Positions 974 to 49,637 of a DNA stretch of 64,000 bases are shown in pieces (position 1 is the first letter of the stretch; the number at the start of each line of letters is the position of its first letter). This stretch comes from a virus. The stretch covers positions 95,665-159,664 of IMG/VR virus record IMGVR_UViG_3300017971_000201; one strand, given 5' to 3'. The notes beneath the pieces are model-generated. The model did no database searches and was not told where the DNA came from. It saw only the letters and a program-made list of their open reading frames with translations. A program made the translations under genes and the position numbers.

Positions 974-2938
974 GTGGGAGCAGCGCGAAGACGAAACCCC
1001 AAGGTAGCCGCAGCCAGGAAAGGGAAGCCGCCGCCCAAGGCCACCGGCAACTGCCGGAACTACAGGTACGGCGCGCACGAGCCGATCGCCAATCTGGACA
1101 AGGTGCTCGATGAGATGCGCGGTGCTCACGACCTGCGCAACGTGCTGACGTGCATCAACCGAGCCCGAAGCGAGATGATCACGGCCGCGCTCGGCGAGCA
1201 CCAGTCGTACAAGAAAGCCACTGCTGATCTGGCGGCTCTGCACCAGCGGCGCGACAAACTGGAGGCGCAGATCCGGCAACAGAACAGCGCCAGCCGCAAA
1301 CGGCTGGGGCGACACTCCCCGCTGTCTTCGGAACTCGACACCGTTCGCAAGAGGATCGACGAGGGCAGGACCGCTCTCAAGAAACTCCGCAGGAAGCTCC
1401 TCAAGAAAGACCCCGCGCTGAAAGCGGTTGTCGAGGCCGCTGACGACATGGCGAAGAGGGAGACGACTCGCGCGGAAGATGCCTGCGGGCTCTACTGGTG
1501 CACCCGAAACGAGCAGACCGGCAAACGCGCCAAGCTGCGCCGCTTCAAGAAGTGGCGCGACAGCGAAGCGACCATCAGCGTTCAGATCCCAGGGGGGTTG
1601 ACCGTTGAGCAGCTGCTTGGCGGCGAGAACAACCAAGCGCGCCTGGAGCTGCGCCCGGAAGGCGTATGGGTCCAGGGGGCGAGGAAGCGCAAGGTCGAGC
1701 CGGCCGAGGCCGCGAGGAACAAACTCAGACTCGACGAAGACGGCTACCCCATGCGCAAGCTGGGGACCGCCATCCTGCATCTCCGGTGCATGTCAGACGA
1801 GGACGGCAAGCCGATTTGGGCCGAGGTGCCGATCACCTACCATCGCGAGATCCCCGCCGATGCCAAGATCAAGCGGTGCTACTTGCACCGATTCCGGGTC
1901 GGCAACCGCTACCACTGGTCTGTACGCTTCTCGCTGGAGCGGGGGAAGAAAGGCGACGACTCCTGGCTGCACCCGCGCGTCGCCACGACCGGCACGGCCG
2001 CGATCGACATCGGCTGGCGATGGTTCCCCGATCGCCTACGCGTCGCCGTGTGGGCCGGATCGGACGGAGCCGAGGGCGAGCTGTGCTTGCCCAAGTGGTG
2101 GCTGGACGAGATGTACTCCGTCCGGCTCGACCAGCGGGAGCGCGACGTGCTGTTCAACGAGATCGTATCCCTGGTCCTGCCGTGGTTCCGATCGCGGCGC
2201 GGGGAGCTGTCCGACTACGTCGTACAGGCGATCAAGACGATGCACTCGTGGCGCGACAAGGGAAGGCTGGCCGCGCTCTCCATGCGCTGGCGCGATGATC
2301 TGGCCGCCGATCCGGGCGCCAACCCGGCTCACGTCGCCATGTCCATCCGCCTGGAGGAGTGGCGTAAGCGCGACAAGCACATCTGGTGCGAGGAGGTGAA
2401 CCTCCGCAGCCAGCTCCAGGGCTCGCGCAAGGATCTCTACCGGCGATTTGCCGCGATGCTCACCAGCCGCTACGGCCGAATCGTGGTCGAGGAGTTTGAC
2501 CTGAGTGCGGTCCAGAAGCTCCCGCCGGCCTCGATCGATGACGGCACCTACTCCAGGGTCAAGAGGCACAAGGGAGACGCGGCGTGCTCGCACCTGGTCG
2601 GCGCGCTCAAGGATGCGGCGCGGCAGCTGGACAAGAAGAACCCGAAGTGGACGACCAAGCGGTGCCACGTCTGCGGGAAGACCGAGAGGAAGTGGGAGAA
2701 CCCCGGTGAGCTGGAGCACACGTGCAAGCACTGCGGAGTGCTCTGGGATCGGGACGTGAACGCGGCCCGGAACATTCTCGCCGCGAGCGGCGTGGCGGTT
2801 GACTGGACCCGGCCACCGCTCGCGCCAGCCGCCCGAATGACTTATCCACAGGTAGAGAACCGCGAGATGCGTCGATCGCGGCGCAGGAAGGAGGCGCTCG
2901 AAACGACGCGTGCAAGCGGTGATCGACAGACGGCTTAG
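974..2938 (+). CDS. cas12: type V CRISPR effector, Cas12m (V-U1)-like, RuvC triad intact
   Basis: 654 aa; RuvC-I AIDIGWR (D345), RuvC-II IVVEE (E506), Zn finger CHVC..CKHC, RuvC-III DRDVNAA (D594); N-terminal motifs GLYW, ISVQI, VPITYHREIPADA, KDLYRRFA recall Cas12m; array begins 10 nt after stop. Confidence 0.85.
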   Translation: MGAARRRNPKVAAARKGKPPPKATGNCRNYRYGAHEPIANLDKVLDEMRGAHDLRNVLTCINRARSEMITAALGEHQSYKKATADLAALHQRRDKLEAQIRQQNSASRKRLGRHSPLSSELDTVRKRIDEGRTALKKLRRKLLKKDPALKAVVEAADDMAKRETTRAEDACGLYWCTRNEQTGKRAKLRRFKKWRDSEATISVQIPGGLTVEQLLGGENNQARLELRPEGVWVQGARKRKVEPAEAARNKLRLDEDGYPMRKLGTAILHLRCMSDEDGKPIWAEVPITYHREIPADAKIKRCYLHRFRVGNRYHWSVRFSLERGKKGDDSWLHPRVATTGTAAIDIGWRWFPDRLRVAVWAGSDGAEGELCLPKWWLDEMYSVRLDQRERDVLFNEIVSLVLPWFRSRRGELSDYVVQAIKTMHSWRDKGRLAALSMRWRDDLAADPGANPAHVAMSIRLEEWRKRDKHIWCEEVNLRSQLQGSRKDLYRRFAAMLTSRYGRIVVEEFDLSAVQKLPPASIDDGTYSRVKRHKGDAACSHLVGALKDAARQLDKKNPKWTTKRCHVCGKTERKWENPGELEHTCKHCGVLWDRDVNAARNILAASGVAVDWTRPPLAPAARMTYPQVENREMRRSRRRKEALETTRASGDRQTA

Positions 2939-2948
2939 GAGAGATGCT

Positions 2949-3335
2949 CTCGCGGTCCCATCGGAACGGGTTGTGGTTCCGACAACGTGGACTGGGAACG
3001 CTTCTACAGAGCCTTCGCTCTCGCGGTCCCATCGGAACGGGTTGTGGTTCCGACACGCACCAGAGTCCCTTCCCGGCCCGCCGCGCTCCACTCGCGGTCC
3101 CATCGGAACGGGTTTGTGGTTCCGACACAGGTAAATGCAGGTCCCCAGGTGCTTGTGGCTCGCGGTCCCATCGGAACGGGTTGTGGTTCCGACACAGGTA
3201 AATGCAGGTCCCCAGGTGCTTGTGGCTCGCGGTCCCATCGGAACGGGTTGTGGTTCCGACGTAGCAGAAGTAGTCGCCGATCTCGACCTCCACCACGTCC
3301 TCGCGGTCCCATCGGAACGGGTTTGTGGTTCCGAC
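2949..3335 (+). CRISPR. CRISPR array, 6 repeats / 5 spacers
   Basis: Repeat CTCGCGGTCCCATCGGAACGGGTT(T)GTGGTTCCGAC at 2949, 3020, 3091, 3159, 3226, 3300 (35-36 bp); 3-prime hairpin TCGGAAC/GTTCCGA; spacers 36, 36, 32, 32, 39 bp; spacers 3 and 4 identical. Confidence 0.97.
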
Positions 3336-3410
3336 AGATTCATGTAGGCGGGCGGTAAGGCGGCTACCTCCGCATCGCCGCCGCCCGCTTCGGAACCCGC
3401 GCCCTGATGC

Positions 3411-3469: not shown

Positions 3470-4903
3470 CTAGAGCAAATTGTCCACTTCCACGCGCGCG
3501 AAGAACTCCGCCCGGGTGAGCGTGATCTTGTGGCGCGTACGGACCGCGCGACGGAGGCTCAGGTCATTCGGGTCGATGAAGTTCGGGGTGATCTCCATCG
3601 GGATGTACGGGCTGTAGATGAGCCCGGTGTCGAGGATGCTCGGCCCCTGGTATCCCATGAGGATCTGGTTGGCCGGGAAGAGCGGATCGACGAAGATCAG
3701 CCACTTCCTCTTGAGCACGCCCTGCTTGAGGATCCCGCCCTGGTAGACGTGACCCTCCTCGACGGCCGAGAAGCCATCGATGTTGTCGAGGAGGCTGGCG
3801 ACCTCCGACGACGTGATCGCCCAGTTGCAGGGCGCCCGCTGCGTGCGACGGTGCACGATGTGGGAGGCGCGGGACATGCGGATCACGAGCGACTTGAGGT
3901 GCTCGGGATCGCTGACGCCCGAGGGCGTCGCCCGGTCCCACTTGACGACGGCGATCGGCTCGACGGCGTTGAGCGCGGTACCCGCGATCTCGCGGTCGAT
4001 CTCCGCCACCATCTCGTCGGACATCTGCGCGACCAGGTCGGCGTCGATGTCGCGACCCCACAGCGCGCGGAGGTCGTCCGCCGCCTCGACGCTGGCGAGG
4101 CTCTTGAGCTTGCGGCTCTCGGCCTCGATGCTCTTGATCTGGATGTCCAGCTGGACCTCCGGGATCCGAGCGTTCAGCTCGTTGTCGTAGCGGTACTCGA
4201 CCGTGATGACGTCACCGGACGCCGGCGCGGTGCCGAACGTGAGCGACATCTGGCCCGACGCGTAGTTGACCGTGCCAGCGCCGCCGGCCATCAGCGTGCC
4301 GGCGACGACGGTGAACGCGCCCGCGCCGTTGTCGGTCGCGTTGACGGTACCGTTCACCTTCACGACGACGGTGGCCTGCCGGGGGCGGGGCCACGCGAGG
4401 TTGCGGGAGAAGACGACCGTGCCGCCGTCGCCGGTCCCGAACGGCTCGCCGTCCACGAAGTTGGAGCTGTACCACTTGTTCAGCACCTTGTTCATCTCGG
4501 TCATGGCGGCGACGGAACCCTTGTCCGACGCGTACCGTGGCCGGTAGAACGCGATGCCGCCGATCGGGCCGGTCATCGGCTGGACCGACGCGATCTGCGT
4601 CGCGACCAGGCGGATGGCGGTCCTGCGGATGACGGGCAGGACGTACTTCATGAACGGCCCGACCGAGAGAGCGCGAGTCTCCTCGTTGAGCCGCTTGAGG
4701 TGACGAACCTCCTGCTCGATCATCAGGGCCGTCAGACCCCGCACGTAGTTGACGTGGGCCGGCGCGTAGCCCGGACCCATCTCCTCGTTGAGACCCCGGA
4801 GCATCTTGTGCCACTTGCGCACGTACCGGCTGACGGCCGGCTCGTCCGCGATGGCAGTCGACTCTCCGAGGTTCTCGGCTAACAGTCCTCGAGCCGTGAA
4901 CAT
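3470..4903 (-). CDS. major capsid protein, T4 gp23-like
   Basis: VQPMTGPIGGIAFYRPRY, AESRKLK, AEIDREI, GYQGPSILDTGLIYSPYIP motifs. Confidence 0.95.
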   Translation of the reverse strand: MFTARGLLAENLGESTAIADEPAVSRYVRKWHKMLRGLNEEMGPGYAPAHVNYVRGLTALMIEQEVRHLKRLNEETRALSVGPFMKYVLPVIRRTAIRLVATQIASVQPMTGPIGGIAFYRPRYASDKGSVAAMTEMNKVLNKWYSSNFVDGEPFGTGDGGTVVFSRNLAWPRPRQATVVVKVNGTVNATDNGAGAFTVVAGTLMAGGAGTVNYASGQMSLTFGTAPASGDVITVEYRYDNELNARIPEVQLDIQIKSIEAESRKLKSLASVEAADDLRALWGRDIDADLVAQMSDEMVAEIDREIAGTALNAVEPIAVVKWDRATPSGVSDPEHLKSLVIRMSRASHIVHRRTQRAPCNWAITSSEVASLLDNIDGFSAVEEGHVYQGGILKQGVLKRKWLIFVDPLFPANQILMGYQGPSILDTGLIYSPYIPMEITPNFIDPNDLSLRRAVRTRHKITLTRAEFFARVEVDNLL

Positions 4904-4915
4904 CGGCTACCTCCT

Positions 4916-7735
4916 CTAGTGCCGGTGCATCCGCCCGGCCAGTCGCTCTTGCTCGACCAGCGACGTCCCCAGGAACGCCAAGTCCTGGGATGCTGCGTCG
5001 CCGGCGAGAAGTTCTGCTTGTTCGCTCTCCTCGAACGCTCGCCGCTCGTCCTCGGTGATGTGCTCGCGGCCGGCGCTCATGGACCTGCGCACGCGCTCCA
5101 TGGGACCGCCGGGCTCCTGCGCCCGGATCTCCGACCGAGACGCGGCGGCGTCGATCTCCCTGGTGGAGGTCAGCTCGTCGTTGCGAACGTCCTCCATGAT
5201 CGACTCACGGTTCGGGTGACCGATCGTCCGGTCGCTCGCGTATGCCAGGAGCTTGGCCCTGGTGCCGGCCGTGACAGCCCGCTCGAGCATGTCGGCCTGC
5301 TCCTCGATCCGCGCCCGCGCGTCCCGGACCTCCTCGTCCTTGCTCTCGAGAGCGGACGTCAGACGCTCCTCCAGGGCCTCGAACCTCTTGGTGACCTCGG
5401 ACCGGTAGCGCTTCTCACGCGCCTCTGCCTGGGCGAGCGCGTACTCGGCCTCGGACGCCCTCTCCTCCGCGAGGCGGATCGCGGTCCCGGCCTCCTCGTT
5501 CGCGGCGGTCTTCGCCGACATCTGTGCTTCCTCGATCGAGGTCAGCGCTGACTCGACTCTTGTCTTCAGCTCCTCGGCGGTGTTGCACGCAGCGATGTCG
5601 CCGATCAGGTCGCGGACGCTCTCTCGATCCTCGCGTCCGCCGATCATCTGCTCCACGTAGAGCTGGAACGCCAGCTGGCGTGTCTTCTCCTCGACGTGCA
5701 CGACGCGAGACTCCGCGTCCTTGGCCTTCTGCTCCTGCTCGTCCGCTGCCCGGGACAGCTCCTCGATCTTGGCATCCTTCTCGTCCAAGACCTTCTTCTC
5801 GTCGGGCGACGGGGCGTAGGGGTTGACCATCTCGGCGATCTTCTTGAGCGCCAGCTTCGCGCCGGCCGTCTCGGGATCGCTCGCGAAGTCGCTGCGGACC
5901 TCCTCCTCGACCTTCGTGCGCATCTCGGCCAGCGCGCGGACGAGCTTGGCCGCGAAGTCCTCGCGCAGCTCGTCGATCGCCTTCTTGTAGATCTCCTCCT
6001 TTTGGGACTCGACCTCACCGTTGATCCGGTCGTCGGTGTCCTCGGCCGCAGTCTCCGAGGCCACCCGCATCGCGTGCTGCTCGATCACGCGAACCGCGTC
6101 CGGGAAGTGCTGGCGCAGCATCGTCTCGGTGACCTCCTTCGGGTCCACCACGAGCTTGCCGGTGGGCTTGCCCTCGCCGTCCGTGTCCTCGGAGATCACG
6201 GACGGATAGGCGTCGTGGCAGGCCGGATCGGCCACGAAGTCCCACGTGTTGAGCTTGAAGTCCTCGCCGACCATGTCCCAGCCCCGGGGGCCGGTGGACG
6301 TGGAGCCCATGCCCCGGCTGGACATGCCGATGGCCGCACCCCGCCGCAGGAACGCGGCGAGGTTGCGACCCGCGTCGGCCTCCTCGACGACCTCGAACTT
6401 GCCGTTGATCGTCCCGTCGTCCTCGATCCAGAGACCGCGAACGATGCAGCCGCCCTCCCGGATCCGGCTGTTGTGGTTGACGGTGAAGTCGCCCAGCAGG
6501 AACCGGCCGTCGCCGTCCAGCTCGAATCCGGCGTAGTCGCCAGTTCCGATGGACGTGACGATGAACCCGGTCCTGAGCGCATCCTTTCGCTGCTCGCGCG
6601 GCTCGGCCTTCTTGCGCTCCAGACGGGTCGGGATCTGCTCCACGTCGCCCCAGATGGTGAGCGTGTGGTAGTCGTCGCTGTAGCCCTGCACCTTGCGCGT
6701 GGAGAGCACGGCCTGGAGGCCGAGCGACTTGGCGATCCGGTGCGCGGCCTGCGCATAGTCGGCGCGCTTCTGGGTGATGTAGAAGCAGTTGTGCTGGAGA
6801 TGACCGTCGGTGTCGATCAGCCCAGCAAGGAACTGGAGACGGGTCTCGCGGCTCCCGCGCACAATCGCGGTCGGGATCTCCACGTTGGTACCCACCATGT
6901 CGCGCATCGCGCGCAGCAGCCGGTTGTCTTGGCCGCGACCGGCGGTCAGGTGGATCGTGACGGCCTCGGTCCCGGTGGTCTTGCGCCACTCGTTCGTGGA
7001 CAGCTCCCACCGTGCGGCGGTGTCCTCGCAGAGCTGCTTGATCTCGTCATCGATGGTCGTGATCGAGATGTCACCAATCCTGGGCGCACCGGCCTTGTTC
7101 TCGCGCAGGGTCTTGCCACCGTCACCGAACCAGACGCCGAGGAAGTAGGGATCGACCTTCGGTTCGGGCAGCTCGTCCTCGAACCGCTCGACGCCGGTGC
7201 TGAACAGCTTGTAGCGGCTCTTGTAGTAGATGCTCTTGTCGAGATAGTCCTCGACCGGGATGTCCACGATCTCGCCGCTGGACGTGTGAACCAGCGTCAG
7301 TACGTGCTTGTCGTTGCAGACCCACGGATCGCCCTTCGCCGGGTCGATCCGGTAGAGCTGGCCGGTGCCGGAGGTTGTCGCCAGCACCGTGCGCGCCTTG
7401 CCGTCCGGCCCCATGAGTCGGTCGCCAGCGACGATCTGCTCGACCGGGAGCACGCGACCGTCGGCCATGAGGACCGGAGTCCCCAGGCCGAGGCACTTGC
7501 CGTCCCCGGGATGGTCGACCGCGCCGATGACGCTCCCCTGCTCGATCCGGGGCTGGAGTCTTCCGATCTCCCTCTCCATGACCGAGCGGGGGTAGACGCG
7601 GTTGTTGGCCGTCGGCTTGTCCACGTGGCCGATCTTGCCTTCGACCACGAGCTTGCCACCGTCCCTCCCTTCGAGGATCTGCATCCTCATGGGCGGACCG
7701 TAGTGGTCGACCAGCACGCGCCTGTTCGTCGTCAT
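4916..7735 (-). CDS. prohead protease (T4 gp21-like) with intein, fused to long acidic coiled-coil scaffold region
   Basis: NNRVYP, GAVDHP, GMSSRGMGS, DFVADPA motifs; intein at aa 81-422; C-terminal about 400 aa helical and E/K/A-rich. Confidence 0.9.
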   Translation of the reverse strand: MTTNRRVLVDHYGPPMRMQILEGRDGGKLVVEGKIGHVDKPTANNRVYPRSVMEREIGRLQPRIEQGSVIGAVDHPGDGKCLGLGTPVLMADGRVLPVEQIVAGDRLMGPDGKARTVLATTSGTGQLYRIDPAKGDPWVCNDKHVLTLVHTSSGEIVDIPVEDYLDKSIYYKSRYKLFSTGVERFEDELPEPKVDPYFLGVWFGDGGKTLRENKAGAPRIGDISITTIDDEIKQLCEDTAARWELSTNEWRKTTGTEAVTIHLTAGRGQDNRLLRAMRDMVGTNVEIPTAIVRGSRETRLQFLAGLIDTDGHLQHNCFYITQKRADYAQAAHRIAKSLGLQAVLSTRKVQGYSDDYHTLTIWGDVEQIPTRLERKKAEPREQRKDALRTGFIVTSIGTGDYAGFELDGDGRFLLGDFTVNHNSRIREGGCIVRGLWIEDDGTINGKFEVVEEADAGRNLAAFLRRGAAIGMSSRGMGSTSTGPRGWDMVGEDFKLNTWDFVADPACHDAYPSVISEDTDGEGKPTGKLVVDPKEVTETMLRQHFPDAVRVIEQHAMRVASETAAEDTDDRINGEVESQKEEIYKKAIDELREDFAAKLVRALAEMRTKVEEEVRSDFASDPETAGAKLALKKIAEMVNPYAPSPDEKKVLDEKDAKIEELSRAADEQEQKAKDAESRVVHVEEKTRQLAFQLYVEQMIGGREDRESVRDLIGDIAACNTAEELKTRVESALTSIEEAQMSAKTAANEEAGTAIRLAEERASEAEYALAQAEAREKRYRSEVTKRFEALEERLTSALESKDEEVRDARARIEEQADMLERAVTAGTRAKLLAYASDRTIGHPNRESIMEDVRNDELTSTREIDAAASRSEIRAQEPGGPMERVRRSMSAGREHITEDERRAFEESEQAELLAGDAASQDLAFLGTSLVEQERLAGRMHRH
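6470..7495 (-). mobile_element. intein with LAGLIDADG homing endonuclease in the prohead protease (342 aa)
   Basis: Starts CLGLGTPVLMADG, ends FTVNHN with +1 Ser; YFLGVWFGDG and FLAGLIDTDG motifs. Confidence 0.93.
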
Positions 7736-12900: not shown

Positions 12901-13202
12901 GACATGACCCAGATGCAGCGGCCGTCCTTGACCGAAGGCTGGGTCGCGTCGTTGGCAAAGTAGTGGAAGGCGCTGTTGATGTCCGGGTACTCCTCCATCG
13001 CCTCGTAGTCGGCAAACCGATCCATGAGCGACTGGGAGACGGTGAGCAGACCGCCGATGTCCTCGCGCCCCCAGACCGTGAACATGCTCGGCACGTGGTG
13101 ACGCATCGCCGCGACAGACGGAGAGTCGGCCTTGGCCCGCTCCTCCTGTGGAGCGCCGAATACGTTTCGGAGCGCCTTGACCGCCCTATCACGGAGGGCC
13201 AT
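9960..13202 (-). CDS. portal protein (T4 gp20-like) with intein
   Basis: LEDSVLIYKL/TRAPARYAYYID (gp20 EDA.VIYRITRAP motif split by intein), EDFFIA, DDVEYF, LKVPRAYL. Confidence 0.93.
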   Translation of the reverse strand: MALRDRAVKALRNVFGAPQEERAKADSPSVAAMRHHVPSMFTVWGREDIGGLLTVSQSLMDRFADYEAMEEYPDINSAFHYFANDATQPSVKDGRCIWVMSEDDALKGLGNDLMHRILRVEDEIWPQAYGLGMMGNDYLELLITENGIVGTNTLPVPTMRRVERLDGGLIGFVQDVTGQFTANSQELRRMLAGNVEIPRSLALFEDWQVAHFRLRATRRRSPYGVSVAEGARWIWKRLVMLEDSVLIYKLCLRGDSQIWTPDGRKAIKDLQEGDEVYSYTDPGNDHRLKKTKVVYKKHNGQDKIFRVFSDHREIFANRTHPVLVETVVGRGKGIPQIRRLDYVEVQNLEPGVHRFVTPSKNEDDWEEIYLERPQLHSKARLVGAVERTMPYPKIAKQVGVHHCRARDFFAGDYDLKTDTAVALLEANGHGPEHLEIEEHWGGERGTPVTGITVPETADADFARWWGFMLGDGFVATRTHKLRPGHSEAHVAQNETGFALGAHQDINEQYKALFEKYAPVKLVGDTGHRLGAYTIVSGKFAEFMTLNGFVPGAHHKRLPEWIFRAHPKLKLAMIRGLADADAHIKPRKEGRKTRYERARFEMCNKQLLEDVRELAMQLGLVATFVWSRTRAGGRTIKGSSKPLPTSTSYCLDVSFKPQAKTEVIRGVEEIETDDIYDIGVEADEHNFVADGCVVHNTRAPARYAYYIDTTDIPSDQVGAFLQKAKRDLKKKRMVNPRSGRLDLRYNPLARDEDFFIAVREGRELARVDVLSGPDYQAVDDVEYFKQMLHATLKVPRAYLGKDEAPPSKSILSNDDVRAARVTLNLQRELKIGWERVIRTHLAARGVRDPWKPEFTIEMTVPSGIWELAAYETMNAAADYASRIQPWVSTRWIQENILKFSEEEIKEIEKQQKKDSEEEQAGDLPSYAMGGGQGGPPEAPPPGGEEEPEEAPPEEAPEKAPPEEEEGTPKPAPKPSPKPKAPAVGKGKKPTPEEWKRYDYERRLEEWKYRESSRRHSEISDKLNRLLEGDKGFARREHERRAFFEEVRGLLRRTNGGSMSAPPSGKFSRKELLAMTRRFHGQ
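11118..12452 (-). mobile_element. intein with LAGLIDADG homing endonuclease in the portal (445 aa)
   Basis: Starts CLRGDSQIWTPDG, ends NFVADGCVVHN with +1 Thr; WGFMLGDG and MIRGLADADA motifs. Confidence 0.93.
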
Positions 13203-13923
13203 CTAGTTCTCCAGTCTCGTCGCCGACGTCCAGGAAGATCTCGGTCGCCGAAACGCTCGAGCAGTCTTGCGGCAGGACGTCATATACATCTTCCTCTTCG
13301 ATCCATGGCTCGCAACCGGCAACCTTGTGATTGCCAGGCATGATCTGTCGCTGGAGATCGAGAAGTCGATGCAGTTTGCTCCGGTTCCCCTTCCGTGGGG
13401 TACCGTCGATGTAGAGGTTGTCCGGGTGGCAGTTGTCAGGGTTGCCGTCCTTATGCTTCACCCGAAGCCCAGGAACGAGGGCATCGCCGGAGGCCCATTC
13501 ATACACCATTCTGGCGACGCTCCGCCATCTTTTCCGGTCGCTCGCGCAAGCCGCGTGCTTCCAGTGATCGGTCACCTGCCTGAAGGTCGGGTAGCCGCCC
13601 TGCTTGATACGACCGAGGTAGAGCGGAACCAGGCTCGTGCACGGCTTGAGATCGGCCGCCCGAACGGTCTCGACTCTCCTCGGCTCCCAGTTGGTGAACA
13701 CCAGGAAGCGCTGGTCGGCGCTGACCCGCAAGCTGCGGCCGTTGTCGAGAACGACGCGGTATGTCTGTGCGCGGGTGGGCGTGTGCGGAATGTAGACCCG
13801 GCCAGCGGCGATCTTCGCACCGTTCCAGGAGAAGACGTAGACGGGCTCGTCGGCGTTAGCGATGCGGACGGCGGTCTGGGGACCGCTCATGGTGTGGATG
13901 ATCGTGTCGCCGGCGATACTCAC
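13189..13923 (-). CDS. free-standing degenerate Hint-domain protein with inserted HNH-like segment
   Basis: GTG start overlapping upstream stop, GAGGAGG RBS; SIAGDTII (block A), LDNGRSLRVSADQRF (block B), VRAADLK, VYDV (block F); KHKDGNPDNCHPDNL; no terminal HN. Confidence 0.75.
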   Translation of the reverse strand: MSIAGDTIIHTMSGPQTAVRIANADEPVYVFSWNGAKIAAGRVYIPHTPTRAQTYRVVLDNGRSLRVSADQRFLVFTNWEPRRVETVRAADLKPCTSLVPLYLGRIKQGGYPTFRQVTDHWKHAACASDRKRWRSVARMVYEWASGDALVPGLRVKHKDGNPDNCHPDNLYIDGTPRKGNRSKLHRLLDLQRQIMPGNHKVAGCEPWIEEEDVYDVLPQDCSSVSATEIFLDVGDETGELDGPP

Positions 13924-24906: not shown

Positions 24907-27900
24907 TTACGATCGCGTCGTCTTCAGCTTCCGCCGCCTCGCGGGCGGCGTCAGCGCAGACCTCGGATCCTCCACGGGAGCGGTTCCCACGCCCGTGCGC
25001 GACGAGCCCTGGACCGGTGAGCTGTAGCGGCTCGGGAAGTCCACCGACTCCTGCTTCGCGACGTGGGCGTAGATGACCTCCTCGGCGTCATGCGGATCCA
25101 GCCCGAGCTTCTCGGCGTAGGCGTGGAACTTGTCATCGTCGAGACCAGGGTTCGCCTTCACGAAGGCGACCAGCTTCGCCTTCTGCTTCGCCGTCGGATC
25201 GTCCTCCTCCTCGACGCCGGCCTCCTTCTCCATCCTCTTCAGTCTGGTGTAGTAGTCCGGGATCTCCGCGAGGTGGTCCATCGCGATCTCTTGGGCCTTG
25301 GCCCGCATCTCCGCCTTGGAGTAGCCGCCACCGACCAGGTGCTCCTTCTCGACCTCGATCCCCATCGCCAGCTCTTTGGCGTCGAAGTCGCTCGGCTTCT
25401 TTCCCTTGGCCTTGCCGCCAGGAATCTCCTCGGCCTCGCAGAGCGCGCAGCGAACACCGAGCGTCACCAGCTCGCGGCGCTCGAGCACGGACGACAGGCT
25501 GTCACCGAACAGATCCTCGTCCTCACGCAGGTCCACCCGCTTGTCAGGCGCCATGAACGTGCGGAAGCGGTCCATGATGTCCTTCGTGAGCTTGTAGCGG
25601 CTCTGGATCTGGTGCCCCTTGCCGATGTAGGCCGCGAAGATCTCGGCGAAGTCCTCGTAGCGCTTCGACGCGCCGTAGACGCTGGGGAAGTCGCCGGTCT
25701 CCTTCCCCTTCTCGGTCGGCTGCTTCGCCAGACCGAAGTACCAGGCGTAGGTCTTCCGGCGCGCGCGCGGGATCTCTCGGTAGTAGTAGTGGTGGCCCAG
25801 CTCGTGGACCATCGTGGTCATGATCTTGGCCGGCTCCTTCTTCGCGCCGATCGAGTTGACGAAGATCTCGACAATCTTCGTCTTCATGTCGTAGTTGCCG
25901 AGCACCCCGGGATGGCCGGCCCGCAGGTGCATCGTCACGTTCGGCAGCATGAAGCCGAAACCGCGCTTCTTGAGCAGGCCCACAGCATCCTTGCAGGCCA
26001 CCGCGTATCGGTCCCAGGTCTCCTGGTCGACCCCGAGATCGTTGAACAGCATGATGCCATTCACCTTCGCCTGCTTGGGACCTGGCTCGCCGGTCGCCCA
26101 CGGCAGTTTCGCTGGCTTCTTCGCGGCCTTCGCGATCTGCACGAGCGGAGATGGCGGCTTCTTCCCCTTCTTCTTCTCCGACTTCATCGAGGCCAGCGCG
26201 CCCTTGAGCGTCGCGCCGTCGCCCCGGTAACGGTAGTGCGGCTTCGGCTGGCCCTGGAGCTTGACCGTGAACGAACCATCCGAGCGCGGACGGACCTTGA
26301 ACTTGCCACCACCCTTGAACGAGAAGTCGAAGCCCTTGGGTGATGCCGAGTACTTGTCGACCTTGAGCGACTTGCCGGCCAGCTTGCTCGAGACCGACTC
26401 CACATCCTTGACCAGCGCCTTGGCATCCTTGGGACCGGCCTTGCTCTTGGTAGCCGTCGCCTCGGTCAGCCCATCGGACACGGTTGCACCGAGCGGAACC
26501 TGGTACTTCTCGTGGCCCCACAACTCCAGGTCAGTCACCTTCCAGCTCCCTTCGGGCCGGTAGCCGGTGTAAGCCGGCTCGCCCGGGTTGATGTAGGCCA
26601 GCGTCGCGTGTGCCTTGAACTGCTCGGCATAGCCCTTCTTCGGGTCCTCGTCCGGCCCGTAAGTGTGCGCGATCGGAATACCCGCCTGCTCGGCCGCCTT
26701 ACGAAGAGCCTCGTGCAGGCTGTTGAGACTCGACTGCTCCGGCCAGGCGGAGCCGATCATGTGTGGGATCGTCTGGCCGTCGTTGTTCGTGAACTCTCCG
26801 TAACCGCCCATCCGCATCAGGAACGGCTCATGGGAGCGCGCGACCCTGCCGACCGCGTCGACCAGTTTCCCGTAGTCAGCTGGGGAGAGGTCGCCGGCGT
26901 AGAGCACCGTGAAGTGAGGAACCGAGTCGTCCTCCTCGCTCTTGTCCGGGAAGTAGCGGGCCAAGTTCGACGGAACCGGAAGGAAGACGCCGCAGGACAT
27001 CGTCCCGTCCCTGTTGACCTCACGCTCCTCGGTCCGCACGCCGTCTGGGTGCCCGTGAATCCGCCTACGGACCTCCTGCCACATCTCGTCGTCGACCGGC
27101 CGCTCGTGCGCGGCGACGATCTCGTCAGCGAGCCTCTGGTCCTCGGCGCTGAGATCTTCTGTCAGAGACCCGACAACCCGCTCGAACAGCGTTGCCCCGT
27201 CCGGGTCGATCGACTCGCCCCAGTCGGCCATCGTGGACGTGTCGGGGATCATGGCCATCAGCTTGGCGATGTCGGCCTTCGTGACGCCCTTCTTCTTGGC
27301 CGCCTTCTTCTTGGCCGCCTTCTTCTTGGTGGTCTTCTTCTTGGTGGTCTTCTTCTTGGTGGTCTTCTTCTTGGTGGTCTTCTTCGCCTTCGGCTTCTCC
27401 GGCTCGGGGGCCGGCGGCGGCACAGGCTTGGGTTCTGGGGGAGGCTTGGGCAGCGGGGCCGGCGGACCTTCCTCTTCGCCCTCCTTCGGCGGCGGCAGGA
27501 CCCACGTCAACGCCTTCTTCGCGCGCGTGATCGCCACGTACTTCAGGTTCTCTTCCTGCTGGATCTGAACCGGGTCCTCCGACTTCAGCGCCATCGGCAG
27601 CGGCAGCAGGTCGGGCCGCTGGATGAAGACGTTGTCCGCCTCGAGCCCCTTCGCCTTGTGCACCGAGGAGAAGTTGATGGCCGGTGTCGGGTCCGACACG
27701 AACAACTGCTGGACCACCTTGACCAGATCGCCGGCGACCTTCACATCGCCCTTCGACATAAGCGCCTGGAGGCAGTCGCGCTTGTCGTCGAGACCCTGGA
27801 GCAGGTGCTCCTTCTTCTCGGCCGTGAGCCGCTTCGTCTCCTTCATGTGCCAGTCCTGCACCTTCGCAGCGAACTGGTCAATTGGCATGGTCTTGTGGCC

Positions 27901-29919
27901 CTTCTTGCCGCCGATCCTCTCGACCAGCCGGCTCAGGGACTTGCCGATGTCGCGGCCGACGACGTTCGCCTTCTTGCCCTGGGCGATCAGGCCCAGCGCA
28001 GCGGCCACGTTCGGAGCGTTGGTGCGGCAGAGCACGAAGTCGCCCGGCTTGAGCGTCTCGTAGAACTCTCCGTGCTTGATGGTCTTGACCGAGCCCTCGG
28101 GAGCGCCCGGAGCTGCCTCGATCGTGGGAACAATGGCCTGGGCCTCGGTGATGACCTTCTGCGGGCAGCGGTAGCAGATAGAGAGTGGCTTCTCCTCGGC
28201 GCCCAGCTCTTTCTGCATCTTCTCCATCGAGTCTGGGTCCGACCCCTTGAAGGCGTAGATCGACTGGTTGGGGTCTCCCACCAGCATGTGGCGCGGGGCG
28301 AGCCGCTTGGCGAACTCGCGCTCGAGCGGGCAGAGATCCTGGACCTCGTCGACCATCGCCCAGTCGAGGCTCGCCTTCTTCCCGGTCGCGCGGCTGATGA
28401 TCGGCAGGTCGTGCATCACCGGCCAGAGCACCTGGTCGGCGTACTCCATCGTCGTCTTGTCATCGACGCTCTGCTGGAACGCGGCGTCCAGCACCTCGGT
28501 GACCTGCTGCGGCGTGATGTACTCGTCTGTTGGAACCGAGGAAGTCGGCAGGTCGATCTCGAACTTGTCCAAGACCTCCTTCCAGGGCGGGAACTTCATC
28601 TCGCCCTTCTCGTCCAGCTGGCCCATCATCTTCCGCTTGGTGATGACCTCGCCCATGTCGTAGCCGTAGTTCGACTCGTACTTGTCGGCCACCTTCTCGT
28701 TGGGAGCGAGCTTCTTCACCAGCTCGTCGCAGATGAGCCGGTTCTTGTTCTTCACCAGCTCGGGCGGCTTGCCGCCCTTCTTGAACGCCTTGACCACCGA
28801 CGCGCGCCCGTAGGCGTTGATCGTCGCGGCCTCGACGTTCTTCAGATCCTTGACGCGCTCGGCCAGCGCGTTGGCGATGTCGGTGTTGAACGCGAGGAAC
28901 ACGGCCTTCTGCCCTGGAGGCACGAACTCGAGCGCCTGCTCCATCGTCGTGGACTTCCCGGCGCCAGCCTTCGCGTCCACGACCAGCGCGGCCTTGTCCT
29001 TCTTCGACGCCTCGGCGACCCAGTCGAAGATCGCCTGCTGGTAGTGGCTGGGCTTGAACTTCTTCTTCTTCTTCGGAGGAGGAGGCGGAGCGCCACCGGC
29101 CTTTGCTGCCTTCTCGAGTTCCTCCAGGCCCGTCTTGTACCACTTCGCCTGGCCCTTGCTGGCTAGCCATCCCTTGGCCTTCTTCGGGATGTTGTCGTCC
29201 ATGAACTTGCGGAGCCAGTCGCCGAGCGTGTGACCGTGGTCCTTGAACAGCTTCTCGTCTTGCGAGACTGGTCCTCCCGGCCACTGCTCGCTGAACTTGT
29301 CCTTCCACGATCCCTCGGCGAGCCGGCCGTCAGTGCGCTCGTCATCGAGTACCTCAGCCTGCTCGGCCACTTCCGCAGCGCCTTTGGCCGTGCCCCCTGG
29401 ACCGTGCGCGTCCAGTCCGGCGCGCTCGTTGTAGCGGCTGGCGTAGCCGTACACCCACTTGAGATAGTCCTCGTCGGCCTCGCGGTTCAGCAGCGCGAGA
29501 GCCTTGTAAGCCGAGAGCTTCTCCTCTTCCCGGCGGCGCTTCGCCTCATCCAGGAAACTCAGCGTCTCGTCGAGGTCGCGCGCGGGCTGATCGGACTCGG
29601 TCTTCACCATGCTGCTTGCCTTTTCGATCAGGCCCATGATCGGAACTGAGTAGGAGGGGTCGGCCATGTAGCGCGTCCGGTGCTTGCGGATCTCGGCCGC
29701 GAGCTTCGGGAAGTCCTTGCAGCACTCGTCGGCCGCTTCGCCCATATGGCCAATCGCCAGCCACCTGTGCTCCGGGTAACCCTGGACCGCCTCGCCCATT
29801 AGCACCTCGGCCTGACTGAGATGTTTGCGAACGCAGTTCAGGCAAGAGTCCCTAAGCTCGGTCAGGTTCATGGCGCCCCCGGGATCCCCTATGATCCCGT
29901 CCGAGGAGGCCGGAGGCAA
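24907..29919 (-). CDS. large multidomain protein: SF1 (UvrD-like) helicase + 2H phosphoesterase + zincin metallopeptidase + DUF5661-like domain (start 29919 or 29871)
   Basis: AKAGAGKST, VDEVQD, VGDPNQSIYAFKG, SVHKAKGLE, YVAITRAK; HFTV/HATL; HELGHH...YG..K.YEDFAE; ELAMGIEVEKEH..IAMDHLAEIPDYYTRL. Confidence 0.85.
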   Translation of the reverse strand: MPPASSDGIIGDPGGAMNLTELRDSCLNCVRKHLSQAEVLMGEAVQGYPEHRWLAIGHMGEAADECCKDFPKLAAEIRKHRTRYMADPSYSVPIMGLIEKASSMVKTESDQPARDLDETLSFLDEAKRRREEEKLSAYKALALLNREADEDYLKWVYGYASRYNERAGLDAHGPGGTAKGAAEVAEQAEVLDDERTDGRLAEGSWKDKFSEQWPGGPVSQDEKLFKDHGHTLGDWLRKFMDDNIPKKAKGWLASKGQAKWYKTGLEELEKAAKAGGAPPPPPKKKKKFKPSHYQQAIFDWVAEASKKDKAALVVDAKAGAGKSTTMEQALEFVPPGQKAVFLAFNTDIANALAERVKDLKNVEAATINAYGRASVVKAFKKGGKPPELVKNKNRLICDELVKKLAPNEKVADKYESNYGYDMGEVITKRKMMGQLDEKGEMKFPPWKEVLDKFEIDLPTSSVPTDEYITPQQVTEVLDAAFQQSVDDKTTMEYADQVLWPVMHDLPIISRATGKKASLDWAMVDEVQDLCPLEREFAKRLAPRHMLVGDPNQSIYAFKGSDPDSMEKMQKELGAEEKPLSICYRCPQKVITEAQAIVPTIEAAPGAPEGSVKTIKHGEFYETLKPGDFVLCRTNAPNVAAALGLIAQGKKANVVGRDIGKSLSRLVERIGGKKGHKTMPIDQFAAKVQDWHMKETKRLTAEKKEHLLQGLDDKRDCLQALMSKGDVKVAGDLVKVVQQLFVSDPTPAINFSSVHKAKGLEADNVFIQRPDLLPLPMALKSEDPVQIQQEENLKYVAITRAKKALTWVLPPPKEGEEEGPPAPLPKPPPEPKPVPPPAPEPEKPKAKKTTKKKTTKKKTTKKKTTKKKAAKKKAAKKKGVTKADIAKLMAMIPDTSTMADWGESIDPDGATLFERVVGSLTEDLSAEDQRLADEIVAAHERPVDDEMWQEVRRRIHGHPDGVRTEEREVNRDGTMSCGVFLPVPSNLARYFPDKSEEDDSVPHFTVLYAGDLSPADYGKLVDAVGRVARSHEPFLMRMGGYGEFTNNDGQTIPHMIGSAWPEQSSLNSLHEALRKAAEQAGIPIAHTYGPDEDPKKGYAEQFKAHATLAYINPGEPAYTGYRPEGSWKVTDLELWGHEKYQVPLGATVSDGLTEATATKSKAGPKDAKALVKDVESVSSKLAGKSLKVDKYSASPKGFDFSFKGGGKFKVRPRSDGSFTVKLQGQPKPHYRYRGDGATLKGALASMKSEKKKGKKPPSPLVQIAKAAKKPAKLPWATGEPGPKQAKVNGIMLFNDLGVDQETWDRYAVACKDAVGLLKKRGFGFMLPNVTMHLRAGHPGVLGNYDMKTKIVEIFVNSIGAKKEPAKIMTTMVHELGHHYYYREIPRARRKTYAWYFGLAKQPTEKGKETGDFPSVYGASKRYEDFAEIFAAYIGKGHQIQSRYKLTKDIMDRFRTFMAPDKRVDLREDEDLFGDSLSSVLERRELVTLGVRCALCEAEEIPGGKAKGKKPSDFDAKELAMGIEVEKEHLVGGGYSKAEMRAKAQEIAMDHLAEIPDYYTRLKRMEKEAGVEEEDDPTAKQKAKLVAFVKANPGLDDDKFHAYAEKLGLDPHDAEEVIYAHVAKQESVDFPSRYSSPVQGSSRTGVGTAPVEDPRSALTPPARRRKLKTTRS
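27290..27385 (-). repeat. 15-bp tandem coding repeat (KKKTT/KKKAA, histone H1-like linker)
   Basis: Repeated ttcttcttggtggtc units. Confidence 0.85.
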
Positions 29920-41781: not shown

Positions 41782-42190
41782 CTCTGCTCTCCTCTTCCTC
41801 AACACGCGAGGCCACCGTCCCGAGCAGGTCTACCGCACTGATGTGCTCCTTGCAGTACTGATACTCGTTCAGGATCGCGGTTCGTCTGCACAGCCCTTCC
41901 CAGGTCTCCCCATCCGCGTAGTTGTTGATCGCCCTGTTGAGCACCATCGCGAACCCGTCCGTGTGCTTGACCGTGACGCGGACCGTCCCTTGTGTCTTGT
42001 TCTCAGCAACCTCGGCAAACTCGCACGCGATCTCCTCGAAGGCCGCGCTCTCAGGATCCTCGTCACAGAGATCACCGGCGGCCCAGTTGATCGCCTCGAT
42101 CATCTTCGCGGTGAACGTCAGCTTCCACTCGCCGCTCACGATCAGACCGGCGTCGATCCACGGCTTGTCGAACCCCTCGGTCTCGCTCAC
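41771..42190 (-). CDS. hypothetical protein with tag
   Basis: SAVDLLG. Confidence 0.6.
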   Translation of the reverse strand: MSETEGFDKPWIDAGLIVSGEWKLTFTAKMIEAINWAAGDLCDEDPESAAFEEIACEFAEVAENKTQGTVRVTVKHTDGFAMVLNRAINNYADGETWEGLCRRTAILNEYQYCKEHISAVDLLGTVASRVEEEESRDGS

Positions 42191-42441
42191 AGTGCCCCCA
42201 CGTCGATCTTGAAGCTGAACCGGACCGGCGCGAGCGTTAGCCTATTGACGATCTCGCGGTTCTTCCGCATCCGCTCGACGTGCTCATCCCACTCCCGAAC
42301 GCGGTGGGCCGCGCGCTTGTCAGCAACAGCCGCCAGGCGGTCGATCGCGGAAGGCTCGGTCGGCGCGCGGCGGAAGATGGCCTTGCTGAGGATCGACTCG
42401 CCGTACTGGTCCATCTCCGCGTAGTCGTCGTAGCGGTTCAT
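42187..42441 (-). CDS. portal N-terminal-like peptide fused to tag
   Basis: MNRYDDYAEMDQY vs portal MDRFADYEAMEEY; EPSAIDRLAAVA. Confidence 0.6.
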   Translation of the reverse strand: MNRYDDYAEMDQYGESILSKAIFRRAPTEPSAIDRLAAVADKRAAHRVREWDEHVERMRKNREIVNRLTLAPVRFSFKIDVGAL

Positions 42442-47383: not shown

Positions 47384-47671
47384 GTGAGTCCAGCTGACGC
47401 GATCAAGGCCAGCCGGATCGGCCTCGCGATCGACGAGAGCTACGAGCCGCTGGTCTTCTACTGCTCGCGCGATTCGATCTCCACGGTCCGTACCCACCTC
47501 TGCCGGATAGGCCAAACGGCCCGCGCCCGCGCGCTTAGGCTCCTCGGAGAACACGAAGCCGGGACCATCCGCATCCAGCTCGTTCCCATGAGTGACGCCG
47601 AGAAGACCAAGACCTGGGAGCCGGTCGCGCCCAAGACCGCGATCGACGACCTGGCGGACCTGGCACGCTGA
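47384..47671 (+). CDS. hypothetical protein with tag
   Basis: TAIDDLADLA. Confidence 0.6.
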   Translation: MSPADAIKASRIGLAIDESYEPLVFYCSRDSISTVRTHLCRIGQTARARALRLLGEHEAGTIRIQLVPMSDAEKTKTWEPVAPKTAIDDLADLAR

Positions 47672-48051
47672 TGAGCGGCACATCCGGCAGCGGCGGCACC
47701 CACACCGGCAAGCTGTCCGGCGGCCCAACCCCTCTCTACTCCTCCGACCAGATCACAGACAGGATCATCCGCCCAGAGGAGCCCTCAGCAGTCGAGCTGC
47801 TCGGCGACGTAGCGACTGGTCAGCGCAGACCCGCCCGCTATCGCCTGCCCCACCTCCCCGTGAAGCCTGGCTCCGTCGTGCTCATGCCCCTGGACCCGGA
47901 CGCGCCGGTGCCGTTCATGACCGATGACAGCAACGGCAACCTCGGCGGCGACATCGCCACGATCGACTACAAGACTGGCATCATCGAAACACACGACCCG
48001 CTGCCGCGCGTCCCGCTCAAGGCCGGCTGGATCTTCTGTACAGAGACCTAG
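47671..48051 (+). CDS. capsid-insertion-domain-like protein with internal tag
   Basis: YSS..., LPVKPGSVVL, TDDSNG, ATIDYKTG resemble the MCP insertion; EPSAVELLGDVA. Confidence 0.55.
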   Translation: MSGTSGSGGTHTGKLSGGPTPLYSSDQITDRIIRPEEPSAVELLGDVATGQRRPARYRLPHLPVKPGSVVLMPLDPDAPVPFMTDDSNGNLGGDIATIDYKTGIIETHDPLPRVPLKAGWIFCTET

Positions 48052-48053
48052 CC

Positions 48054-48302
48054 TCAGCAGCCGACTGACAAGCCGTCCGCGTCGCCCTCGATCCGGCGGA
48101 GCTTCGGGTGCTTCACGAGCTTCTGGGGCGTCGACTTGTCGAGACGCACCCCACCGATCTTGTGCTTCGCCTCGAAGTCGATGATGTAGCCGTGGACTCC
48201 CTCGTGCGCGCTCACCGGCTTCAGGTACGGCAGCAGTCGAATGATCTCGGCCTGTGCCTTCGGCAGCGCACTCACGTCGATCCGGGTCGCCTCGGTCAGC
48301 AC
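48054..48302 (-). CDS. small basic protein with MLTE leader
   Basis: 82 aa; MLTEATRI. Confidence 0.55.
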   Translation of the reverse strand: MLTEATRIDVSALPKAQAEIIRLLPYLKPVSAHEGVHGYIIDFEAKHKIGGVRLDKSTPQKLVKHPKLRRIEGDADGLSVGC

Positions 48303-48323: not shown

Positions 48324-48707
48324 TTACGCGCGGGCGCGCTCTTCCTTCTTATGAACCCCTTCCCGCGCAATTTTAGCCCCCAACGGATTGTCCACCGCCG
48401 GCCCCTCGAGCGGATCCCTGTAGACCCTCCACCGCTGATTGATCAGAGACCTCCACTCCCGCCACTCCCTCCACTCGCGCACGCGTCTGGCCGCCTCGCC
48501 CTCCGGGTCCGCGATGGCGGCGAGCTGATCGACCGCGCTCGGCTCCTCGAATCGGCGGGCGTGCCTGGACATGATGCTCTTGCGCAGGGAGAAGTCGTTC
48601 GGATCGACTGTGGTCGCGGGAACCTCGGGGATGTAGGGCGCGAAGATGTAGCCGGGGCTCAGTCCGGTCTCTCCATCGGCCGGTCGTCCGTTCTGGTCCG
48701 CGATCAC
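48324..48707 (-). CDS. major-capsid C-terminal-like peptide fused to tag
   Basis: GYIFAPYIP...VDPNDFSLRKSIMSRH vs MCP GLIYSPYIP...IDPNDLSLRRAVRTRH; EPSAVDQLAAIA. Confidence 0.75.
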   Translation of the reverse strand: MIADQNGRPADGETGLSPGYIFAPYIPEVPATTVDPNDFSLRKSIMSRHARRFEEPSAVDQLAAIADPEGEAARRVREWREWREWRSLINQRWRVYRDPLEGPAVDNPLGAKIAREGVHKKEERARA

Positions 48708-48938
48708 ACCTCTGTTCTACCTGAACCTGAGCCCGGGCGCCGGCTGCGGAGCCGTGAGCGCCGGTTCCGGTGACGTGCTTGTGCTGTGAGCTGGCGCACC
48801 CTGGCGTAGCCGTGGGGCAGGAGCCCTCGGGTTGCGCGGGCTGCACCCTACGTGGTGAGTTTCCAAGGGGAGTGATCGATAGTCCCCTCCCATTCCATCG
48901 CCCGTGCGCTTGAGGGGGCTTCAGTGGCGCAGGAACCG

Positions 48939-49637
48939 CTACAGAAGAGCGAGCACCTCCGCCGGATCGATGACGGTCTTGGGTACAGTCACCAAGCGGA
49001 CCACGCGCCAGCCGGACCTCTCGGCCGCAGCGTCCTTCTGGGCGTCGTAGAATCTCCACCCGTCCTCCTGGTGGAACGGCTCGTCGAACTCGACGAGCAG
49101 CTTCTCCTCATGCAGCGCAAGATCGAAGATGTAACGGCCAATGGGCAGCTCGAACGTGATCTTCCTCCCCTTGAGGGCCTCCTCAAGCCGCTTGTACCTG
49201 TAGCCCTCACGCTTCCTGGCGAGAGCCGCGATGGCGTTCATGCTCCCGCCGTAGCACTTCCCTGACGACCGTCTTCCCTCGATGTCGCCCTTGGACAGGG
49301 GCTTGCCGATGGAGCACTGGGGGCCGCAGTAGAGGTTGTGCCCTCGCCGCCGCGAACGCTCGACCTCGACCGCATCACGCGAAGCCGTCCTACCGCACCG
49401 ATGGCACGTGAACGTAAGCTGCTTGCGCTTGAACGTCCTCCTCGCACCACCGTTGTAGACGAGCTTCTCGCACTCGGGACACCACACACGGCCGCGCCCC
49501 CGCAGCTTGTAAGCCTGCACGACTACCGCACCGCCGCACTCGCACGTCGCTCGCACGAACCCGCCCGCGATGTGCTCCTCGACGGTGAGCTTGCCGAGCA
49601 CCTGGCCGGTCAGATCGATGCGCGGTCGCCCTGCCAT
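48939..49637 (-). CDS. DUF559/Vsr-like putative homing endonuclease
   Basis: DLTGQVLGKLTV, Zn motifs, YIFDLA..KLLVEFDEPFH...DAQKD..GWRVVRL. Confidence 0.8.
   Translation of the reverse strand: MAGRPRIDLTGQVLGKLTVEEHIAGGFVRATCECGGAVVVQAYKLRGRGRVWCPECEKLVYNGGARRTFKRKQLTFTCHRCGRTASRDAVEVERSRRRGHNLYCGPQCSIGKPLSKGDIEGRRSSGKCYGGSMNAIAALARKREGYRYKRLEEALKGRKITFELPIGRYIFDLALHEEKLLVEFDEPFHQEDGWRFYDAQKDAAAERSGWRVVRLVTVPKTVIDPAEVLALL

Follow-up and report, generated by a model that had tools for sequence, protein, structure and literature searches.

Why should a phage with an intact major capsid protein (MCP) gene keep, 44 kb away from it, a second and much smaller gene that encodes a piece of the same protein? 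Capsid proteins are the core of head assembly and are sensed by several bacterial immune systems. The question is raised by a 127-aa reading frame, which we call mini-C, in a 64,000-nucleotide stretch (the window) that spans positions 95665-159664 of IMGVR_UViG_3300017971_000201 (G000; 159,664 b; 65.6% G+C; estimated to be 58% complete). G000 derives from an uncultured, T4-like giant phage with T4-like head genes. It was compared with G001, a complete relative of 275,101 b with terminal repeats and an MCP 95% identical to that of G000, and with five further relatives present as partial or fragmentary records (G002-G006). Cultured phages are all distant: in a search of GenBank phages, MCP identity reached 32% at best. 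Megablast with the mini-C locus against GenBank phages gave no matches, and tblastn with the mini-C ORF returned capsid genes only, at E about 5e-3.

The region around the intact capsid gene has features of its own. The neighboring protease-scaffold ORF, 4916-7735(-), carries an intein that starts with a Cys after GDGK, ends at VNHN before S and holds a LAGLIDADG-type motif (LAGLIDTDG). On the other side, positions 974-3390 adjoin the capsid gene and contain a 654-aa TnpB/Cas12-like ORF and, behind it, repeats whose translation gives RSHRNGLWFR-like units.

Composition of the mini-C gene

Residues 3-49 of mini-C align by BLASTP with residues 411-458 of the phage's own MCP (20/48 identical, 42%; E 9e-10). 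The Smith-Waterman score between the two proteins has a z of 13.6 against 500 shuffles, and an HMM built from three MCPs matches the capsid piece with an i-E of 1e-9; by these measures of homology mini-C belongs to the Gp23 family. The Pfam Gp23 profile (PF07068) matches residues 14-58 with E 0.0012 and 18.7 bits, under its gathering cut-off of 24.4, and the match covers profile positions 311-354 of 376 only, short of the coverage of an HK97 fold. Alignment with T4 gp23 structures in the PDB puts the piece at the P-domain strands beside the A-P linker. In T4 gp23 this linker comprises residues 486-502, and the P loops and P-domain strands form inter-capsomer contacts (PMC9546572).

The best identity of the capsid piece among 118 related MCPs is 50%, with all at about equal distance (45-50%), and identity to the phage's own MCP is 46%. 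This near-equidistance implies an old, separately evolving lineage and not a recently captured piece, and it rules out both a recent duplication and a recent capture from another phage.

The capsid piece is followed directly, from residue 54, by a helical module that begins with EPSAVDQLAAIADPEGEAARRVREW. In an AlphaFold model of mini-C the two helices (58-66 and 71-91) reach a pLDDT of 83-96 and the capsid strands about 50; mean pLDDT is 64 for mini-C and 62 for its metagenomic homologue P0004, with low-confidence capsid strands in both. The model thus predicts a helical hairpin of roughly 40 residues as the sole confidently folded element, and the capsid pieces alone are not predicted to fold. 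Beyond the module, LINQRWRVYRDPL resembles GVLKRKWLIFVDPLF of the MCP. This likeness is weak when taken alone (HSP E 0.068; HMM i-E 12), and the motif is conserved in the homologues P0002-4 and P0016.

Comparison with the homologues clarifies how the parts are arranged. After the module, relatives continue with (L)LNK(R/K)WKVY.DP (for example KWKVYKDP, which aligns with MCP 399-407), matching MCP residues 394-408, and they end in DFFGTVTV(D/E)NL, which corresponds to the true last strand of the MCP, AEFFARVEVDNLL. Because capsid sequence resumes after the module and closes with this strand, the module is, on these alignments, an insertion at the A-P linker position inside a capsid C-terminal piece and not an appended tail. 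The window copy has the N-terminal piece of the family (GY.YAPYIP..DP.DFS.R) and the module (EPSAVD.LAAL.DP.GEAA.RV..W) but lacks DFFGTVTV(D/E)NL immediately before the stop: just AVDNPL is left of the strand DFFGTVTVDNL, and 19 more residues follow. Here the frame runs past the lost strand and stop into what resembles the 3' flank of the relatives, the DNA alignment being suggestive only.

Mini-C is like gp23 and gp24 (PF07068, HK97 fold; PDB 5VF3, 6UZC) in its P-domain strands at residues 12-49, with residues 88-100 resembling the preceding strand, and its relatives retain the final strand of gp23 too. However, it holds about 55 of 477 residues, in permuted order and split by a helical hairpin, so that no HK97 fold is possible.

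The gene has its own promoter-like element of leaderless type, in the order TAGAAC-AGAGGT-GTG. The hexamer occurs 65 times in the 160-kb record against 28 expected; a start codon lies exactly 6 nt after it in 18 cases, compared with 1-6 at each other spacing.

These results confirm the observations of a first-pass annotation, which had described the ORF as a diverged capsid fragment expressed on its own with a tag, aligned it with the MCP end near 3530-3630 (MCP residues 420-458 are encoded at 3530-3646), placed the tag directly after the capsid match, noted the TAGAAC+6 start and held that the piece was no recent copy. The 127-aa frame is open throughout. Its reading as a gp23-family fragment agrees with the MCP-derived HMM, the Pfam match staying under its cut-off. 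A C-terminal capsid fragment and a tag are both present, but the module sits within the piece, not behind it, and the final strand is lost in this copy.

Table 1. Features of the mini-C locus, the head genes and the related mini-genes. Positions are those of the window unless another record is named.
Feature	Position	Strand	Basis or remark
gp23-type MCP, intact, 477 aa; parent family of the fragment	3470-4903	-	Pfam Gp23 E 1.3e-54; 95% identical in G001
gp21-like protease fused to scaffold, with intein	4916-7735	-	head genes
Paralogous small gene with long module (EPSAIDRLAAVADKRAAHRVREWDEH), without capsid piece	42187-42441	-	G001 homologue in L007
Convergent neighbor with short tag (EEPSAVELLGDVA)	47671-48051	+	conserved in G001
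82-aa ORF 3' of mini-C, same variable cassette	48054-48302	-	no family match; with mini-C absent from G001
mini-C, 127 aa, GTG start: P-domain piece, then the helical module, one capsid strand and a read-through tail	48324-48707	-	ORF, homologues
mini-C residues 101-127: lineage-specific tail	48327-48407	-	comparison with relatives; DNA alignment suggestive only
mini-C residues 88-100, resembling MCP 394-408, the strand ahead of the P-domain piece in the MCP	48408-48446	-
mini-C residues 54-91, module: tag helix PSAVDQLAAIA, turn DPEG, long helix EAARRVREW...	48435-48548	-	module HMM E 3e-17
mini-C residues 12-49, homologue of MCP 420-458 (GY.YAPYIP...DPNDFSLR..R.RH), P-domain strands preceding the A-P linker	48561-48674	-
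TAGAAC promoter-like hexamer, 6 nt 5' of GTG, leaderless type	48714-48719	-	then AGAGGT, GTG
Free-standing homing-endonuclease-like gene (zinc ribbons and DUF559/Vsr-like nuclease), 5' of mini-C	48939-49637	-	DUF559 E 2.9e-9; PHROG HNH endonuclease
mini-N, 125 aa: MCP 83-124 piece, then module	G000:C1:13998-14372 = L002 1357-1734	-	whole-record MCP search
Protease-like mini-gene, 139 aa, ends in tag	G000:C1:14372-14788 = L002 1731-2150	-	homology to gp21-like protease N-terminal domain
Protease-like mini-genes (set: 139-147 aa)	L054 3-434; L057 233-676	+	tag at end

A conserved family and its sister genes

A profile (HMM) search of 1.84 billion representatives gave 42 matches, nearly all of 60-210 aa, and we define the mini-C family here from P0002-P0006, P0011 and P0029. 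The first five share both the start and the architecture of mini-C, and the last two share the architecture. P0002 (114 aa) is 57% identical to mini-C (E 9e-22), has the same VIADQNG.PADGETGL start and begins at a GTG overlapping the stop codon of the gene ahead of it; this start/stop overlap is seen for mini-C in the contigs L006, L054 and L057. Between mini-C and P0002, dN/dS is 0.32 for the whole gene and 0.19 for the first 38 codons, the capsid piece (dN 0.19, dS 1.0). Because the homologues keep the start and architecture and the capsid piece has this low ratio, mini-C is to be read as a gene and not as debris, and the sequence comparisons point to a family conserved under purifying selection. 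Mini-C is a real accessory gene, belonging to a family of mosaic mini-proteins in uncultured T4-like giant phages. Other matches combine the module with capsid sequence differently: P0007, P0012 and P0015 have it at a different loop of that capsid piece, P0024 consists of MCP 200-225, module and MCP 327-367, and P0010 of MCP 279-300, module and MCP 330-363.

The same genome holds a second gene of this kind. Mini-N joins a piece that is 58% identical to MCP 83-124 (E 3e-12) directly to EPSAVDRLAALAEPEGELAKKIKKYDD, and its module is homologous to that of mini-C (E 5e-8). By alignment, the mini-N piece corresponds to residues 92-140 of T4 gp23, the most conserved gp23 stretch, and we take the piece to be Gol-equivalent. 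In the Lit/EF-Tu exclusion system, Gol is a ligand of 29 residues that works autonomously, and no region of gp23 is more conserved (PMC3014915). Mini-N is kept in G001 (G001:25125-25328) with 66% identity and a dN/dS of 0.36-0.46, against 0.13 for the MCP, and has metagenomic homologues in P0037 and P0034.

A third type of mini-gene is related to the head protease. These genes lack the DHPGDG histidine of the real enzyme (in the G000 copy the His is replaced), and the tag follows the protease-like domain at the point where the real enzyme runs on into the scaffold. They lie directly 5' of mini-N in G000 and of mini-C in L054 and L057, with stop/start overlap in the latter two. Mini-C appears to be a member of a set with mini-N and the protease-like mini-gene. 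In G000 the MCP alone has such fragment paralogues, save for one 32-aa match with another large ORF, in which a 272-aa tagged ORF, G000:C1:11051-11866(+), aligns with a 924-aa ORF, G000:C1:2939-5710(-), at 50% identity (E 4e-5); this alignment makes the 272-aa ORF a candidate for a further fragment paralogue, here of a different large protein. Two more frames of G000, 13114-13362(-) and 13356-13637(-), weakly resemble MCP 247-303 and 286-316 (z 4.1 and 4.8 against shuffles), a likeness that is only suggestive.

The first-pass annotation had spoken of a common tag, and the counts agree: a loose tag pattern occurs in 50 ORFs of the record, whereas shuffled sequences give 2.6. The tag lies mostly within 20 residues of the C-terminus, with the consensus SAVDRLAAL, and the module HMM finds the long module in seven ORFs of the record. 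The serine of the tag is encoded by TCN as well as AGY codons, which implies selection on the peptide and not on the DNA and rules out a selfish DNA repeat. Rickettsia palindromic elements are selfish in-frame insertions in which one peptide-coding unit occurs inside many unrelated genes. The tag is similarly spread, but its peptide is conserved with differing codons, pointing to selection at the protein level. Tag and module matched no known family, a literature search with the tag sequence gave nothing relevant, and Pfam searches of ten larger tagged ORFs returned just DUF6011 and a sub-threshold DnaJ zinc-finger match. An origin of the module in the MCP propeptide or the scaffold, hinted at by a weak BLAST HSP, was rejected, as the module HMM (--max, E<=10) matches neither the MCP nor the protein encoded by the protease-scaffold ORF.

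The variable cassette around mini-C

G001 conserves the flanks of the locus (47385-48030 and 48741-48937), and between them the window segment 48031-48740, which holds mini-C and the 82-aa ORF, is swapped for 1157 b with other ORFs. The homing-endonuclease-like gene is likewise an insertion relative to G001, which has 99 b in its place. Mini-C is absent from the complete G001, and searches of the fragmentary G002-G006 did not find it. Because the closest complete relative is without the gene, mini-C is dispensable.

An exon remnant carried by a homing endonuclease or intron would be highly identical to a donor capsid gene or would flank the capsid gene. Mini-C does not fit this description: its best identity to any of 118 MCPs is 50%, and 44 kb separate it from the MCP gene. 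Within the 1.5-1.8-kb contigs L006, L054 and L057, no endonuclease lies beside mini-C. In two of these, the genes convergent to mini-C, L054 937-1290(-) and L057 1122-1481(-), have sub-threshold matches to the Acb2/Tad1 hairpin (E about 1e-3); from sequence these neighbors could be a pointer to an anti-defense neighborhood.

Possible roles of the mini-proteins

We tentatively favor the possibility that mini-C mimics a contact surface of the capsid and is aimed at the prohead. The hairpin, made of the tag helix and the second helix, would present the P-domain strands and one A-domain strand, and these capsid-derived strands would occupy the partner site normally taken by that edge of the capsid protein. 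The target would be a prohead under assembly, belonging to the phage itself or to a relative infecting the same cell, with the hairpin as a shared handle. The homology to MCP 411-458, the conserved family, the purifying selection and the kept start are consistent with such a role, as are the shared module of mini-N and the tagged protease-like genes that precede mini-N and mini-C. The module is modeled with confidence whereas the capsid strands stay at a pLDDT of about 50, and the piece adjoins the A-P linker, in a protein whose P domain makes inter-capsomer contacts in T4 (PMC9546572). Against this, mini-C is dispensable and absent from G001; its terminal strand is lost and it reads into former flank, a possible sign of decay; the capsid pieces, at about 45 residues, are unable to form an HK97 fold; and the promoter type cannot separate early from late expression. 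The weak Acb2/Tad1-like neighbors in two relatives suit an anti-defense role at least equally. Prediction of a complex between the MCP (40-row alignment) and mini-C (10-row alignment) gave a score of 0.00 in a run without controls, a result that bears in neither direction on binding.

An anti-defense decoy, which we consider unlikely, would have the mini-proteins show the most conserved segments of the capsid and protease and so blunt host capsid sensors, with the hairpin as carrier or adaptor. Both clear capsid pieces are indeed the most conserved segments of their family, mini-C is an accessory gene in a swapped cassette, and mini-N evolves faster than the MCP (dN 0.27 vs 0.044). The first-pass annotation had proposed such a decoy, or else an inhibitor of a competing phage's assembly. 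The parallel that it drew to Lit and the Gol peptide suits mini-N, whose piece covers the equivalent of that autonomous ligand, but not mini-C, which has a C-terminal segment instead; moreover, the Gol peptide is a stand-alone ligand that forms part of full gp23 and not a separate gene. Binding of the capsid segment activates Lit (PMC3014915), so that an unaltered mimic should trigger the system, not block it. The sub-threshold Acb2/Tad1-like genes beside mini-C in L054 and L057 would fit a decoy; the protease-like mini-genes in the set fit it less well. No sensor of the head protease is known.

More broadly, T4-like giant phages might keep an epitope-display toolkit in which each mini-protein carries one conserved head-protein segment on the common hairpin and neutralizes whatever recognizes it, a generalization that we regard as doubtful. 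The segments would be the capsid N-arm/Gol region, a possible spine-helix piece, the P-domain hairpin and the head-protease-like domain; the targets would be host immune systems that sense capsids, or else head assembly in rival phages; and the hairpin or tag would link the mini-proteins to one phage-encoded receptor. A literature search for capsid decoys and paralogues returned no precedent. A conserved gene family under selection whose products consist of nothing but the best-conserved capsid segments and a shared handle would form a new class among phage accessory proteins. Its members could act as self-mimics against host sensors or rival phages, or as new components of the prohead, and mini-C, mini-N and the protease-like mini-gene are concrete proteins for testing.

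The small chance that mini-C is a decaying or neutral mosaic has to be weighed separately. Recombination at the module, or co-conversion beside the homing endonuclease, would have joined capsid leftovers into a drifting copy without function. The window copy has lost its terminal strand and stop codon, G001 is without the gene while an endonuclease insertion lies directly 5' of it, and the family is a collection of patchworks in which the module is joined to varied capsid segments, as module recombination would yield. In contrast, a dN/dS of 0.19 on the capsid piece at a dS of about 1 argues for selection. The start codon and promoter-like element are intact with neither frameshift nor internal stop, and the family is widespread with conserved motifs, its piece not recently captured.

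Tag and module could also be a head-targeting label that loads many small proteins, mini-C included, into the prohead for injection, with the capsid piece incidental or a docking aid; we consider this distinctly improbable. The internal proteins of T4 are a precedent for head-targeted cargo. Their capsid targeting sequence is N-terminal and carries the L/I-x-E cleavage motif of the head protease, and the HK97 protease has a C-terminal targeting tail. The tag resembles these in being one short peptide that recurs on small accessory proteins with no relation to each other, in a phage whose head is of T4 type. About 50 ORFs of the 160-kb record have it, for the most part no more than 20 residues from the C-terminus, and it follows the protease-like domain where the real enzyme continues into scaffold. 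It differs from the T4 sequence in being C-terminal or, in mini-C, internal, in lacking L/I-x-E and in the large number of ORFs that carry it. Furthermore, as many as fifty cargo species would be without precedent, the genes that bear the tag are dispersed among accessory blocks, and the module HMM matches neither the MCP propeptide nor the scaffold. That mini-C and mini-N are two heterodimerizing halves is made less likely by G001, which has mini-N but not mini-C.

Returning to the tentatively favored mimicry of a capsid contact surface, proteins that act on head assembly in a related way are known from satellites. Ccm of the PICIs and Sid of P4 alter head assembly through capsid resemblance or binding, and both are full-size, folded proteins. 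Mini-C differs in being phage-encoded and in displaying a fragment.

Two further arrangements of capsid genes were seen in other phages. In Bacillus phage SP-15 (KT624200.1 / NC_031245.1), positions 25503-27984, the capsid gene is annotated as two pieces flanking a putative endonuclease, an example of a split capsid gene from a cultured phage. G005 (IMGVR_UViG_3300025150_000002, 203 kb) encodes a 336-aa MCP paralogue (L048 1420-2430(-); Pfam Gp23 E 4e-12) that is without the insertion domain and lies distant from the true capsid gene.
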